This document shows, in pieces, positions 20,444 to 57,299 of a stretch of 64,000 nt of DNA; within the stretch, counting starts at the first letter, position 1, and each line of letters starts with the position of its first letter. The position numbers and the translations under genes were made by a program. The notes beneath the pieces were generated by a model, which saw only the letters and a list, made by a program, of their open reading frames with translations, did not search any database and was not told the origin of the DNA. This stretch comes from Candidatus Hadarchaeota archaeon (lineage in GTDB: Archaea > Hadarchaeota > Hadarchaeia > Hadarchaeales > Hadarchaeaceae): the NCBI GenBank assembly GCA_964514945.1, contig CAZESD010000001.1, positions 40,246 through 104,245 of the forward strand, written 5' to 3'.

Positions 20444-20595
20444 TTGCTCACCGCGTGCACTTGAATCCCTAAATTTAATAAACTATCCCCAAAACGGTTC
20501 TGTTGAATCTGAGGGTGTTGCATTTGCGGTGTTGAAGGAAGGCTGTTGAAGTTTTTAGAAAACACAATATCCAAAAAAGTAAATCACTTACAAGT

Positions 20596-20766
20596 GTGAA
20601 TAAAAAATTCGTCTGGAGCATCATGGACAACTTCGAATGGGCTGAAGGCTATAACAAACGCTTCGGCCTCGTTCACATGGACTACCGGACTCTGAAGCGT
20701 ACCCCGAAGAAGAGTGCCTATTGGTACAAGCAGCTAATCGCGAATAACGGCTTCACTTTCTTTTAG
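20596..20766 (+). pseudogene. 3'-terminal remnant of a GH1 beta-glucosidase gene (copy 1)
   Basis: Frame ending at TAG 20764-20766 reads '..[52 protein letters not shown]'. This is the conserved GH1 C-terminus (W-S-x-x-DNFEW-x-x-GY-x-KRFG). There is no upstream GH1 body. Confidence 0.75.
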
Positions 20767-20824
20767 GTAAGGATGCATTCAGCATATCTCGAATTGCTTA
20801 GATTTGGGATGTGTAGAACCCATT

Positions 20825-21682
20825 CTAAATAGTCGCTAAGAACACTCCCGCGAACACGATAGCCATTCCACAAATCGCTTTTTTAGAGGGCCGTTCTCTA
20901 ACGAGAAGAATACTGAGCAGAAAGCCGAAGGGTATCACGGCGCCGGCGACAGGTGCCAGCACGCTTGCTTTTTCCATTCCCAATGCACCCAGAAACAGGA
21001 GGGGGCCGATGAAAAAACCGAGGATGCCAGAGAGAACGCTCAGCTTCAACCCCCTTTTGTCGAACTTTATACCGGTCCCAATGTGACTGACACCCATTGC
21101 GATATTGCAGGCCACCGCTGCGGAGATCACCCTAACCGCGAGAAGTGTGCCCACAGTCATTCCTTCATTGAGGCAAAATTTCATGGGGGCGATCGCCGAA
21201 CCCCACATGATTGCCACCAAAAAAGCCAGAGGCACCATCCCCTTCCAGCCGTCTGTTTCCTTCCCTTTCGGTGCCAGGAAGTATGCTCCAAGAACCACGA
21301 AGGCAGCCGATACAAGAATGAGTGGCGTAATCCTCTCGCCCAAAAACAAAAATGCAGCGAGAACCCCCCATACTGAGTGGGAATTGCCGATGGGTAAAAC
21401 CCTGTGGACAGCGCCCCTATTCACTAAATAAAAGTACAACTCACATGCCGCGAACCAAGAAATTACTCCGACGAGGATTCCTATCACGGTTAAAAATAGT
21501 CCTGGATAGCTCAAACTATTGGTCAATAAAGCAAATAGAATAATCAAAGGCGCAACTAAAGTTGGCCTGATGGCGTTAAAGACAGATACATCCAACCTCC
21601 TCAAAGCTAACTTGCCAATCGTTTGATCTGCTCCCCAGCAAAGGGATGCGGCTAGTGCAAGTGCAAGTGCGAGCGAATTCAT
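20825..21682 (-). CDS. DMT/EamA-family transporter (paralog 1)
   Basis: 285 aa, about 10 TM, two EamA halves. Collinear with 24673..25536, e.g. 'RGAVHRVLPIGNSHSVWGVLAAFLFLGE' versus 'REAVHRIAPISNTQPLWGVLAAVLLLGE'. Confidence 0.85.
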   Translation of the reverse strand: MNSLALALALAASLCWGADQTIGKLALRRLDVSVFNAIRPTLVAPLIILFALLTNSLSYPGLFLTVIGILVGVISWFAACELYFYLVNRGAVHRVLPIGNSHSVWGVLAAFLFLGERITPLILVSAAFVVLGAYFLAPKGKETDGWKGMVPLAFLVAIMWGSAIAPMKFCLNEGMTVGTLLAVRVISAAVACNIAMGVSHIGTGIKFDKRGLKLSVLSGILGFFIGPLLFLGALGMEKASVLAPVAGAVIPFGFLLSILLVRERPSKKAICGMAIVFAGVFLATI

Positions 21683-21947
21683 GATTCAGATGTGAGTTTG
21701 GGTATTTTTAAAATTTGTGTGCACAGCTAAAAAAGTGCAGTCGAAAGTTAATAGTGAATCTTAGTAAGATGTATTGGCGTAACTCAAAGGATAAACCACC
21801 TATTCACTCCGTGAGATGCCAATAGTATGCCAGCGGGAAGACGAAGACTGAAAGGACTCTCCACAATCGTGGCAAAAAGATTAAGCAAGTTAATGTATCT
21901 GGTACTTTGCCTTTTATCGAGATGTCTGCTCTTGATTTTGTTATTCT

Positions 21948-23276
21948 TTAGGTCAGGATAGGTTTTATTCCCAAAATCTCACAGAAATCCAAAAGTTCTG
22001 ATTTAAAATTCCCATACGCCATATGCAAATGATTTGATCTTATGTTCTGTAAAAATTCCTTCGGGTCCCCATCGAGTTTAATGAAAGCGTGGGGCCATTT
22101 TCCCCTTGCCTCCTTGAACTTCTCTTTAGATTGTTCGAATGATTCCCCTGATGCTATCTGCATTACATATGCCCCTCCCACCCTACTAAGCCTTGCCAAA
22201 GTTACCTTTCCTTTCCTGCAGCAGAACACCGTTGTCGCGCCACGCTTTTTGCCCATGTATTCATATTGTAGTCCCCAGTCCACATCTTTTTTATCTCTAG
22301 CAAGCGTGGTTGCGGCGGCCCCACAGTTTACCAGCCTCAAGACCCCTTGTTCCATATCGATATGGTTCACATCTGCGAAAAGTACCGGACCATCGGCAAG
22401 TATATGCATGATTTGCATGGTCAATGCAGCGTTTATATCTGCTTCACAAGCGGTTACTATCCCATCGTCATTAAGCAAGGAGATGCCCAAGCAACATGAA
22501 ACATAGTTGTCGATCATCTCAGGTTGGCATTTCACGCCTATGAAATCGAATTTCTTCTCATGAACTATTTTTTTAAGAGCCATGTATAACTTAATCGATT
22601 TCATCATTATCTCGTCTGGCGGTTCTATTCTACCGTACTCCTTCTTTATCTTTTCATAAAATTCCCGCGCCGCCTCATCTGAAATCTGAGTTGCTAATAA
22701 CCACAACTGATATTGATCAACGTGTTCTATCTCCACCCCGAATATACGCTTGACCTGTGCCATGTCCACCATCGCGGTATACATGCCCATCGAACGTCCA
22801 CCGATGAGGCCAAAATTTGAACCTTTAAGTTTGTTTACAACCATTGCCGCTCTTGCATACGAAACGATGCTTTTTAGTGCTTCTTGATCGTCGGGCAGTC
22901 CATATACGAACTTGTGTTTAATACCAATCTCATCCAGAGATCCATGAACTATCCCACCCCCCACCAGCGAAAAGGACTGCGGGTCCGCCATCGCCCATAA
23001 TACGAACGGCATTCTGACTTCCTGTGTCGCTGTGACAATCGTTGGGGGATATACCCAAGTCCCAATAAGATAAATCAAACAGTCCGCTCCTTTATCTCTA
23101 AGTTCTTTCGCGGCTGAAACAGTCTCCTCAGTACTCAATGAAATATCCTTATGATGAACCACATCAAGTCCTGCGTTCTTTAAGCTATCAATAGCAGCTA
23201 AATGAAAATTTTCAGCCAAATCTAGTCTCTCTCTTGGTAAGGATAACGTGATCAATCCTACTTTAGGCAGCGGCAT
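21948..23276 (-). CDS. L-fucose/L-arabinose isomerase-family sugar isomerase
   Basis: 442 aa. N-terminal 'KVGLITLSL' Rossmann-like domain. The C-terminal part ('GVKCQPE...TACEADINAALTMQIMH...DVNHID...LVNCGA') is typical of FucI/AraA-like isomerases. Confidence 0.7.
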   Translation of the reverse strand: MPLPKVGLITLSLPRERLDLAENFHLAAIDSLKNAGLDVVHHKDISLSTEETVSAAKELRDKGADCLIYLIGTWVYPPTIVTATQEVRMPFVLWAMADPQSFSLVGGGIVHGSLDEIGIKHKFVYGLPDDQEALKSIVSYARAAMVVNKLKGSNFGLIGGRSMGMYTAMVDMAQVKRIFGVEIEHVDQYQLWLLATQISDEAAREFYEKIKKEYGRIEPPDEIMMKSIKLYMALKKIVHEKKFDFIGVKCQPEMIDNYVSCCLGISLLNDDGIVTACEADINAALTMQIMHILADGPVLFADVNHIDMEQGVLRLVNCGAAATTLARDKKDVDWGLQYEYMGKKRGATTVFCCRKGKVTLARLSRVGGAYVMQIASGESFEQSKEKFKEARGKWPHAFIKLDGDPKEFLQNIRSNHLHMAYGNFKSELLDFCEILGIKPILT

Positions 23277-23334
23277 CCTATCGATAGTGTTGTTAACTTA
23301 GGCTTTTATTTCACTTTTGGATACTTGAACGCTT

Positions 23335-23351
23335 ATTGTTAAGTTAACAAT
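23335..23351. promoter_or_regulatory. 17-bp perfect palindrome ATTGTTAAGTTAACAAT in a divergent promoter region (candidate operator)
   Basis: Arms ATTGTTAA/TTAACAAT around a central G. A related half-site TTGTTAACTTA lies at 23290-23300. A TATA-like 'AATATAAAA' follows at about 23364. It sits between the isomerase (-) and MFS (+) starts. Confidence 0.35.
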
Positions 23352-56548: not shown

Positions 56549-56641
56549 ACCTGGGATCCTAATTTAGGCCAATTTTAAACAATTTCTCTTGCCTTATTAT
56601 TCCTTGAAATCAAATTATGCAAGTTCCAAAAAAAAAGAAAA

Positions 56642-56662
56642 GGGGGAGATCACATCTCCCCC
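56642..56662 (-). terminator. Perfect 9-bp hairpin plus T-run (intrinsic-terminator-like) on the reverse strand
   Basis: GGGGGAGAT-(CAC/GTG)-ATCTCCCCC. On the reverse strand it is followed by TTTTCTTTTTTTTT (plus-strand A-run 56627-56641). Confidence 0.55.
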
Positions 56663-56679
56663 ACTATTCAACCTCCAAT

Positions 56680-56790
56680 TTACACCCAGTTTACCATGTT
56701 ATCGATCATTGCCCAGGTCAGACGATCTGCCGTGTCGTCCCACGCCGAATTTTCTATGACGCTAGTGATGATGTAGCTCGTGCCGGCCAC
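56680..56790 (-). other. 36-codon reverse-strand ORF or gene remnant ending just before the hairpin
   Basis: GTG...TAA frame reads 'MAGTSYIITSVIENSAWDDTADRLTWAMIDNMVNWV'. It is a local GC-richer patch inside an AT-rich spacer, too short for the ORF track, and I recognise no family. Confidence 0.25.
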
Positions 56791-57012
56791 CCCTTTGTAC
56801 GCATTTCGTTATATTTTAATGTTTTAAATATCTTTTTTTCCTAGCAAAAGCAAAAAAATCGCTCATCAAAATGCGTTTTTATTACTTTTTCTTAAATTTT
56901 AAACATAAATTTTTATAAAATTACTATTATTATCCAAAAATTGACCTAAATAATATAAATAATAATTAAATAGTAAAAAAACAAAATACCTATGCAAAAT
57001 TAAAAAGGAGGT

Positions 57013-57123
57013 ATGAAAATTAAACCATTAAAATCTCTAGCGTCTTTAGTAGTAGTAGCAATTGTATCTAGCCTTGCATTTTACTCGATAGCATTCCTGC
57101 CCCCATTATCTTTTATTTTTTGA
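57013..57123 (+). CDS. Candidate small hydrophobic peptide (36 aa)
   Basis: Strong SD AAGGAGGT directly upstream of the ATG. 'MKIKPLKSLASLVVVAIVSSLAFYSIAFLPPLSFIF' is a basic N-terminus plus one TM-length hydrophobic stretch. Too short for the ORF track. Confidence 0.35.
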   Translation: MKIKPLKSLASLVVVAIVSSLAFYSIAFLPPLSFIF

Positions 57124-57299
57124 AGATTCCCCAAGCTTTTTAAAAACTTTTTTCACCATGTTTGTCGAATAAACCTCTAGGATAACAAAATCCGCGCAAA
57201 GATAGTCTTCATTCTAGGTACCTCGCTGACTAGCCGACATATGTATGCCGCTTGAGGGCAGCGAGTTTAAGCTATCAAGTGAAAACAAATCTGGTGTTC

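Follow-up and report, generated by a model that had tools for sequence, protein, structure and literature searches.

Genomic and metabolic islands of the classical kind are recognized by the criteria of Hacker and Kaper, and the integrated mobile genetic elements (iMGEs) of Thaumarchaeota are said, in an account of 2019 credited to Krupovic et al., to be bounded by att repeats, to encode integrases and often to carry defence or replication genes. The genomes of Hadarchaeota are small (~1-1.3 Mb); the phylum is known mostly from metagenome-assembled genomes (MAGs), and cultures exist only for a few alkane-degrading lineages. The subject of the present analysis is a block of about 36.7 kb that lies between the core genes thrS and nmd3 in a 64,000-nucleotide stretch (hereafter, the window) of a Candidatus Hadarchaeota archaeon (contig CAZESD010000001.1, positions 40,246 to 104,245). 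In bacterial chromosomes, some hotspots of horizontal gene transfer have no mobile elements, and their flanking core genes show homologous recombination (Oliveira, Touchon, Cury, Rocha 2017, Nat Commun 8:841, PMC5635113).

The block resembles a classical genomic island in its size (>10 kb), its deviant GC and codon composition, its presence in one subclade and absence from close relatives, and its coherent, plausibly adaptive cargo, but it does not lie beside a tRNA gene and has neither flanking direct repeats nor an integrase or transposase. Like the thaumarchaeal iMGEs, it is a low-GC foreign block in a small archaeal chromosome; unlike them, it carries no integrase, att repeats, defence genes or replication genes. 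With the bacterial hotspots it shares the gathering of accessory genes in one core-gene interval, rapid turnover among close relatives and the lack of mobile-element genes; the conflicting thrS and nmd3 trees may be a sign of recombination in the flanks as well. The bacterial work concerned many closed genomes per species, whereas the present comparison is made between species of archaea represented by MAGs, and recombination is deduced from two genes.

It was concluded, with a probability of roughly 0.7, that the block is a clade-specific, horizontally acquired metabolic island that arose by host-mediated recombination at a hotspot, with no site-specific recombinase. Because the pattern resembles that of the bacterial hotspots (no mobile elements, possible recombination in the flanks), host-mediated recombination is the most likely mechanism. 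The thrS-nmd3 spacer would serve as the recombination hotspot, and foreign DNA would have been integrated there and later exchanged module by module through the host's own homologous or illegitimate recombination. The island is a well-supported but ordinary kind of feature, a further metabolic genomic island; of some interest are a cassette common to Hadarchaeota and Asgard archaea, and the fact that an archaeal lineage represented almost solely by MAGs shows hotspot behaviour without mobile elements. The lack of mobility genes, together with the conflicting histories of the flanks, suggests that recombination-driven hotspots of the bacterial type shape archaeal genomes too. One subclade within the genus appears to have gained most of a predicted pathway for scavenging amino sugars and chito-oligosaccharides, including a PPi-dependent phosphofructokinase (PPi-PFK), in a single chromosomal interval. 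Telling core from imported traits alters the reading of Hadarchaeota ecology, and in annotation the sugar genes of the island should not be taken as a phylum-wide trait.

Insertion site and composition

The borders of the island are marked by the following features (coordinates are window positions; the genome that carries the window, a MAG of 1.07 Mb in 74 contigs that is 75% complete, is called G000, its contigs C2, C8 and so on, and its relatives are numbered likewise).

18584..20443, minus strand: thrS, archaeal-type threonyl-tRNA synthetase, the left flanking core gene (Pfam tRNA-Thr_ED, tRNA-synt_2b, HGTP_anticodon; orthologues at 78-92% in relatives)
20444..20487: conserved upstream (promoter) region of thrS with the motif CACCGCG.G.ACTTGA...TTTAATAAA; homology to island-free spacers stops here
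20496..20583, plus strand: non-coding repeated element of 89 bp at the left island edge, 84% identical to C8:7421-7509
20596..20766, plus strand: 3' remnant of a GH1 glycosidase, its last ~56 codons and stop
56680..56808, minus strand: C-terminal remnant of a CE4 deacetylase within the right spacer, matching the intact paralogue C2:59265-60977
56800..57010: extremely AT-rich core of the right spacer, GC 0.185
57217..58073, plus strand: conserved nmd3 upstream region and nmd3 itself (57252-58073), the right flanking core gene, followed by ilvBNCD (Pfam NMD3, ilv genes)

Where the island is absent, thrS adjoins nmd3 directly or nearly so in eight relatives, which accords with the insertion proposed in the initial annotation of this DNA. 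The two genes are divergent neighbours, thrS(-)|nmd3(+), with a gap of 40-150 bp in G011, G018, G004 and G014, and the gap is 0.8-1.1 kb in G001, G013, G016 and G010. The thrS promoter motif is common to G011, G004, G018, G001, G013 and G016. The G011 spacer aligns to the window through position 20487 and then from 57217 onward, which places the insert at ~20488-57216 and leaves both promoters intact. The block is a true insertion, set precisely between two divergent promoters, that of thrS and that of nmd3. Across the left junction, window positions 19595-23813 are matched at 100% identity by an independent Logan contig (run SRR10836661); furthermore, the thrS-EamA junction recurs in independent assemblies of G006, G007 and G002, and the nmd3-NagA junction in those of G006 and G002. 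An exact-protein look-up of NagA, made as support for the right junction, returned no record.

The initial annotation had described a lower-GC island of ~37 kb between thrS and nmd3-ilv, and composition bears this out for the 36.7 kb at 20488-57216: the GC content of 20444-57251 is 0.446, versus 0.538 in the left flank and 0.517 in the right flank. Taken in 2-kb windows, GC lies at 0.51-0.57 over the first 20 kb, 0.42-0.49 at 21-57 kb, and 0.49-0.55 beyond. Hand counts made earlier on single lines (33/60, 27/60 and 20/60 GC) proved exact on recount, and the composition profile is not flat. The strand-symmetric tetranucleotide distance to the remaining genome is 0.23-0.31 in the island and 0.13-0.22 in the flanks, with values of 0.19-0.20 in the two edge windows of the island (90th percentile of the genome, 0.26). 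Mean GC at first (GC1) and third (GC3) codon positions is 0.504 and 0.480 for island genes versus 0.593 and 0.595 for flank genes; because GC1 is shifted as well as GC3, amino-acid usage differs too, beyond silent sites. No other run of low-GC windows in the 1.07-Mb assembly is as long as the island (35 kb; the runner-up measures 12.5 kb), and further low-GC patches are present elsewhere in the genome.

Both borders are as they had first been described. On the left, the GH1 remnant matches positions 404-453 of the 453-position Pfam GH1 model (20596-20763, E 7e-21) and is 86% identical at the DNA level to the 3' end of a full-length GH1 gene in G002. On the right, the AT-rich spacer (56549-57251) has a GC content of 0.337 around its core at 56800-57010; in G006 and G002, a CE4 gene stands between nmd3 and NagA. 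The 89-bp element at the left edge is kept in G006, G007 and G002, and its copy on contig C8 lies just 3' of a TATA-like box and 5' of a small helix-turn-helix gene. As a candidate structured RNA, this element was unsupported (fold z-scores of -1.5 and +1.0 for the two copies).

Searches for signatures of mobility agree with the earlier impression that the island has no integrase, transposase, tRNA or long terminal repeat. Scans with Pfam, NCBIfam and PHROG revealed no integrase or transposase domain in the listed open reading frames (ORFs) of the island, including three ORFs without a family match. There were likewise no mobility genes among the ORFs tested in the sibling islands of G002, G006 and G008 (those not shared, of 110 aa or more), and no integrase or transposase in separate islands of G024 and G041. 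Neither ARAGORN nor Rfam found a tRNA or tmRNA in the window, and Rfam matched no family in it at all. A repeat search of G000 gave no terminal pair of direct or inverted repeats, and comparison of the two borders gave no common word of 11 nt or more, a match of a kind that arises by chance in 45 of 200 shuffles.

Distribution, turnover and the recurrent use of one spacer

Most of the island is present, joined to thrS and nmd3, in four relatives (G002, G006, G007 and G008), whose copies are 79-96% identical in DNA to that of G000. Together with G000 these relatives are five species-level genomes, which are monophyletic in a five-marker concatenated tree (support 100/100) and also in the thrS, nmd3 and ilvB trees; because all five members of this clade carry the island, it entered before their divergence. 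Between G000 and G006, island proteins are 72-94% identical and flanking core proteins 86-98%, so that the island has diverged about as much as the flanking core, which fits inheritance from a common ancestor. The earlier surmise of an old island partly adapted to its host fits these data, as the island is older than the separation of these five species and has diverged to a degree similar to that of the core. Conservation of the block in place across the lineage, which would have spoken against an acquired island, was not seen, the island being restricted to the five-species subclade. Across 66 Hadarchaeota genomes, GH42 occurs in four, all of the island clade, and GH9 in three (G000, G008 and G024); close copies of the electron-transfer flavoprotein (ETF) genes are confined to the island clade, and close PFK copies to the island clade, G024 and G041.

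Most island genes are common to G000, G002, G006 and G008, and gene order is heavily shuffled among the five copies. In G002 the island is broken in two: one half adjoins nmd3, the other adjoins thrS, and ~160 kb separates them, as would fit an inversion with a breakpoint inside the island. Three genes are peculiar to G000 among the island copies: a FucI-like isomerase (21948..23276), which has no close copy in the sibling islands, and the genes for an amidinotransferase (ADI/DDAH-like) and a DUF3830 protein, which have no DNA match in G002, G006, G007 or G008. Conversely, sibling islands carry modules that are missing from G000, namely NamZ+SIS (GC 0.36), GH4, a type-A GH1 and, in G008, an MtaB/corrinoid cluster. 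These copy-specific modules indicate that gene flux went on after the first insertion. The island is a site of continuing gene turnover and not a single frozen block, which corrects the first reading. The G008 cluster (L035:417-7799, in G008:C74) encodes MtaB, three URO-D/MtaA-like proteins, a corrinoid-binding domain and a RACo activator, and adjoins the NagB-PFK-GH42 module. Decay of island genes extends to the sibling species, as seen from an in-frame TAG in GH42 of G008 (C74:12443-14629) and two TGA codons in EtfA of G007 (C68:577-1302).

Outside the island clade, separate low-GC sugar islands (GC 0.42-0.49, with flanks at 0.55-0.60) occur elsewhere in the chromosomes of G024 and G041. Their genes include PFK, epimerase, NagB, the Opp system, GH1 and EamA, with identities of 61-85%; for core proteins of G024 the figure is just 44-73%. 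The NagB-PFK-epimerase module is 79-83% identical in both genomes. Full-length GH1 genes are found in sibling islands (L033:329-1663 in G008; L029:11993-13291 in G002) and in that of G024 (L037:13394-14728). The G024 protein, the sole copy read for motifs, has ITSNG at the nucleophile motif (Glu to Ser) and DEP at the acid/base motif, and is a nucleophile-less GH1; G000 has no such gene.

The thrS-nmd3 spacer itself occurs in several states, being empty, occupied by an HprK-like gene, by an insert with tRNA-Ser or by the 36.7-kb island, with an 819-bp gap in G010; several gains in one core-gene interval are what characterizes a hotspot sensu Oliveira et al. (2017). In G001 (L021:5661-6647) and G013 (L022:6341-7327) the spacer holds a single gene of GC 0.42 for a 329-aa HprK-like P-loop protein, a 56%-identical homologue of which is encoded on contig C14 of G000. 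In G016, of a related genus, a tRNA-Ser(CGA) gene (L020:3489-3583) lies within a GC-rich 1.1-kb spacer insert, the rest of which has no ORF or Rfam match.

The two flanking genes have conflicting histories. In the thrS tree, G011+G016 are sister to the island clade; in the nmd3 tree, this place is taken by G004 and then by G001/G010/G013. In approximately unbiased (AU) tests, which covered thrS and nmd3 from MAGs, the data of each gene reject the topology of the other (p 6e-4 and 4e-6). The thrS gene of G013 (C52:12351-14234) is 55-57% identical to the others, while the neighbouring nmd3 and ilvB are at 82-89%, and it looks like a xenologous replacement of a flank gene.

Origins of the cargo and competing explanations

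Donor analysis gene by gene covered five proteins: GH42, GH9, PFK, the FAD oxidase and NagB. The initial annotation had called the cargo mostly bacterial in flavour, which holds for the bacterial-type PFK and for GH9, whose nearest outside relatives are bacterial or haloarchaeal; it does not hold for the SIS_2-GH42-ROK cassette, which is Asgard-related, for the FAD oxidase, with archaeal and Chloroflexota relatives, or for NagB, which belongs to a gene pool within Hadarchaeota. Judged from protein trees and identities, the cargo is a mosaic whose probable donors are mixed: Asgard archaea, bacteria and other Hadarchaeota.

The nearest outside lineages of GH42 are Hermod-, Heimdall-, Hod- and 'Prometh'-archaeota, at 76-80% protein identity. 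In Heimdall-group Asgard genomes, SIS_2, GH42 and ROK form a contiguous operon with a divergent NagA gene upstream. The island proteins are 76-85% identical to those of Asgard archaea (GH42 and SIS_2, 77-85%; ROK, 76-79%), and the DNA is 75-78% identical over 2.95 kb + 1 kb (SIS_2-GH42, 78%; ROK, 75%), which is direct evidence that genes have passed, fairly recently, between two archaeal phyla with subsurface sediments as a common habitat. Despite its same relative position, NagA is only 39-42% identical to Asgard NagA, and in two Asgard genomes examined for other parts of the island there were only generic ABC-ATPase matches (65%). The Asgard GH42 clade nests among Hadarchaeota and other sequences with weak backbone support; relative to its surroundings, the cassette has a higher GC in Asgard and in two low-GC contigs, and a lower GC in G000. 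One of these contigs (L126, of JGI 3300022556, GC ~0.33) carries at 4890-7671 a GH42 that is 83% identical and forms a patch of GC 0.45, flanked by remnants of Hadarchaeota/Asgard-type ROK and NagB-upstream sequence inside a local GntR-ROK-SIS_2 locus; from this context, the cassette was imported there too. A further contig, L124, has a uniform GC of 0.44 and SIS_2-GH42 beside GH1 and an IS240-type transposase, and stands at the base of the GH42 clade; L124 was considered as a possible Hadarchaeon and rejected, having no close match to any of the 66 Hadarchaeota genomes.

The PFK proteins form a tight archaeal clade (five Hadarchaeota and a contig of 4 kb labelled Bathyarchaeia) that is nested within a radiation of bacteria, chiefly Planctomycetota, and are 58-66% identical to their bacterial relatives, around whose genes no synteny with the island was found. 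Beyond close relatives, GH9 is ~50-55% identical to proteins of Spirochaetes, other bacteria and chitin-using haloarchaea. The identity of the FAD oxidase declines gradually, its named outside relatives being Bathyarchaeota, Thermoproteota, Nitrososphaeria and Dehalococcoidia (Chloroflexota) at 63-67%. NagB is present in 15 of the 66 Hadarchaeota genomes, as a lone gene in a native GC context in island-free relatives, and the island-borne NagBs group together (support 90/89), including the G024 copies from another family. The island has swapped parts repeatedly with other archaea, Asgard included.

Several points weigh against an acquired island built by host recombination. The mechanism is drawn from absences and from tree conflict, no recombination event having been directly observed, and the hypotheses for the AU tests were chosen with the trees already in view, though each was taken from the other gene's data. 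All compared genomes are MAGs, 56-95% complete, and gene order in the fragmented siblings is known only in part. The direction of the apparent Asgard-Hadarchaeota transfer is left undecided by both tree and GC. As NagB stands as a single gene in native context in island-free relatives, the cargo is not wholly foreign to the phylum. Substrate specificities, furthermore, are assigned from family-level homology alone. Finally, GC is rather uniform (0.42-0.49) across modules of differing affinity, and one donor with a pre-assembled cluster would fit this too.

The last point leads to the strongest of the rival explanations, the import of a single block from one lower-GC donor (~0.44) with only rearrangement and loss thereafter, which is judged unlikely. 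Besides the uniform GC along the island, the sharing of most genes by G000, G002, G006 and G008 speaks for it, as does contig L124, in which SIS_2-GH42 lies by GH1 and a transposase gene at a GC of 0.44. Against it stand the copy-specific modules (the FucI-like, ADI-like and DUF3830 genes of G000; NamZ+SIS, GH4, type-A GH1 and the MtaB cluster in siblings), the occurrence of the same modules in G024 and G041 within islands that lie at different sites, and the uneven divergence from outside relatives, 78% at the DNA level (Asgard) versus 55-66% at the protein level (bacteria).

A decayed integrative mobile element, inserted site-specifically, perhaps at a former tRNA gene of the spacer, and afterwards stripped of its integrase and att repeats, is less plausible still, with a small share of the probability. 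The tRNA-Ser(CGA) in the same spacer of a related genus (G016) speaks for such an origin, as do the remnants inside the island and its extremely AT-rich edge; the cargo, by contrast, is purely metabolic, and searches of G000, of the sibling islands and of those in G024 and G041 gave neither an integrase or transposase nor a tRNA fragment or terminal repeat.

That the block is native, with a low GC due to regional bias in mutation or expression, and was lost from those relatives in which thrS adjoins nmd3, is very improbable. NagB does have native orthologues elsewhere in island-free relatives at ~80% identity, and its lower GC3 in the island clade (0.43-0.51 versus 0.53-0.60) is as regional bias would give. 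This explanation, however, needs precise loss down to a spacer of 40-150 bp in many separate lineages, and it is at odds with the absence of GH42 from 62 of the 66 genomes of the phylum, with a DNA identity of 75-78% to Asgard genes that cannot be vertical, with the bacterial type of PFK, and with the shift in GC1 and tetranucleotide usage. An assembly or binning chimera, in which foreign DNA was joined into a Hadarchaeon contig, can practically be dismissed: the assembly is a MAG in 74 contigs and 75% complete, but both junctions recur in the independent assemblies of sibling species (thrS-EamA in G006, G007 and G002; nmd3-NagA in G006 and G002), and the Logan contig crosses the left one at 100% identity.

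The preferred reading, a horizontally acquired island shaped by host recombination, can be extended, tentatively and with considerable doubt, to a shared inter-phylum pool of amino-sugar cassettes (SIS_2-GH42-ROK and NagB-PFK-epimerase) among sediment Hadarchaeota, Heimdall-group Asgard archaea, possibly Bathyarchaeia, and low-GC organisms. Its cassettes would encode no recombinase of their own and would land by host recombination at a few core-gene pads, including thrS|nmd3. If this is true, the bacterial hotspots without mobile elements would have in such a pool an archaeal counterpart that spans phyla.

Gene content and predicted pathway

There are ~30 genes between thrS and nmd3. Apart from the border features given above, they are, from left to right:

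20825..21682, minus strand: EamA-family transporter 1 (Pfam EamA; 70-81% identical in G002, G006, G007, G008 and G041)
21948..23276, minus strand: fucose/sulfoquinovose-isomerase-like sugar isomerase (Pfam Fucose_iso_C and N1; NCBIfam SftI-like match below cut-off)
23391..25536, plus strand: MFS sugar transporter and EamA transporter 2 (Pfam MFS_1, EamA; common to G002, G006 and G008)
25659..26483, minus strand: YdjC-family carbohydrate deacetylase (Pfam YdjC, E 1.5e-51; NCBIfam chitin disaccharide deacetylase match below cut-off)
26673..28433, minus strand: GH9 protein with a CelD_N domain, of the Vibrio/Photobacterium 'endoglucanase-related' type (Pfam; PDB matches)
28456..29088, plus strand: D-2-hydroxyacid dehydrogenase pseudogene with at least two frameshifts (three frames match 2-Hacid_dh_C 6-72, 80-129 and 130-178)
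29364..30966, minus strand: amidinotransferase/DDAH-like enzyme and DUF3830 cyclophilin-like protein (Pfam ADI, DDAH_eukar, DUF3830)
31044..31198, minus strand: duplicate fragment of the 5' end of a beta-lactamase-family gene (first ~50 codons; 90% identical to 40576-40730)
31542..32249, plus strand: 235-aa membrane protein of no family (no Pfam match above threshold; 94% in G008, 84% in G002)
32335..38053: Opp/Dpp-type ABC importer, with SBP_bac_5 on the minus strand and two permeases and two ATPases on the plus strand (Pfam)
38100..41888: Amidohydrolase_2 protein, serine beta-lactamase/PBP4B-like hydrolase and F420-dependent LLM oxidoreductase (Pfam)
41956..42645, minus strand: CE4 polysaccharide deacetylase with two partial domain matches (Pfam Polysacc_deac_1; four paralogues on contig C2)
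42801..43829, plus strand: ROK sugar kinase, Asgard-related (Pfam ROK)
43888..47080, minus strand: GlcD/lactate-type FAD oxidase, EtfA and EtfB (Pfam, NCBIfam; 89-94% identical within the island clade)
47130..47906, plus strand: SIS_2 sugar-phosphate isomerase-like protein, paralogue b (Pfam SIS_2; above the NCBIfam NF002805 cut-off)
48004..48384, plus strand: 126-aa ORF of no family (no Pfam or PHROG match)
48811..51909, plus strand: NagB (glucosamine-6-phosphate deaminase), PPi-PFK and aldose 1-epimerase (above the cut-offs of NCBIfam NF001684, TIGR00502 and NF010675)
52107..55057, minus strand: GH42-family glycosidase and SIS_2 paralogue a, an Asgard-related cassette (Pfam)
55343..56548, plus strand: NagA (N-acetylglucosamine-6-phosphate deacetylase; NCBIfam TIGR00221 score 354, cut-off 226)

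Of the five or more gene fragments or pseudogenes counted in the initial annotation, four stand, namely the GH1 remnant, the 2-hydroxyacid dehydrogenase, the beta-lactamase 5' fragment and the CE4 C-terminal piece, while the fifth candidate, CE4 at 41956-42645, only looks rearranged.

Amino sugars and chito-oligosaccharides are debris of cell walls and chitin, and the cargo would give the clade the uptake and breakdown of both. The Opp-type ABC importer, which is common to G008 and G006 and 52-85% identical in the G024 island, would bring oligomers in; YdjC and CE4 deacetylases together with the GH9 and GH42 glycosidases would process them; and the ROK kinase, NagA, NagB and PPi-PFK would then feed glycolysis, up to fructose-1,6-bisphosphate, with the FAD oxidase and EtfAB as a redox accessory of the proposed pathway. 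Orthologues of NagA and NagB of the amino-sugar (nag) catabolic cluster are present by NCBIfam cut-offs, NagB scoring 347 with NF001684 (cut-off 326) and 321 with TIGR00502 (cut-off 237); PFK exceeds the cut-off of the PPi-type model NF010675, the LLM oxidoreductase that of TIGR03560, and both SIS_2 proteins pass NCBIfam cut-offs. The GH9 protein aligns over its full length with Vibrio/Photobacterium GH9 proteins (PDB 3h7l, 5dgq and 6gdt; E 1e-160). A literature search on islands or amino-sugar use in Hadarchaeota yielded nothing specific.

Like bacterial nagA-nagB-nagK and chb-type clusters, the island has NagA, NagB, a YdjC-family deacetylase and a ROK kinase. Unlike them, it has no phosphotransferase system and no NagC or DasR-type regulator, uptake being assigned to the Opp-type ABC importer, and it adds PPi-PFK and the FAD oxidase/EtfAB, with functions that are predicted here. 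It also differs from the archaeal chitin pathway of the Thermococcales type (Dac, GlmA, ADP-dependent GlcN kinase, GlmD) in having no GlmA-type enzyme by model NF041127. The GH42 protein had been considered as a GlmA-type exo-beta-D-glucosaminidase and was rejected, as it reached 29 bits with this archaeal exo-beta-glucosaminidase model, versus a cut-off of 1500 bits; among PDB entries, GH42 beta-galactosidases match it best. The SIS_2 proteins are related to SCO4393 (PDB 9eol), which is NagS, an N-acetylglucosamine-6-phosphate dehydratase (PMC12680351).

The listed NagB ORF begins at a TTG (48811-48950) some 40 codons 5' of the onset of homology in all relatives, and the true start probably lies farther downstream. 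The adjacent 126-aa ORF (48004..48384) is multi-copy in Hadarchaeota, with three copies in G005, two in G006 and others in G002 and G008, often at module boundaries. A 59-nt segment that comprises the ribosome-binding site and first codons is 75-86% identical among the YdjC gene (26437-26495), the beta-lactamase fragment (31141-31199) and the beta-lactamase-family gene (40673-40731), which suggests that 5' ends may have been swapped by recombination inside the island. The CE4 deacetylase family has at least five paralogues in G000 (C2:59265-60977; C2:71-85 kb), one of which is a two-domain protein of 571 aa with repeated Thr/Ser-rich modules that, by eye, resemble fibronectin type III and is probably secreted.

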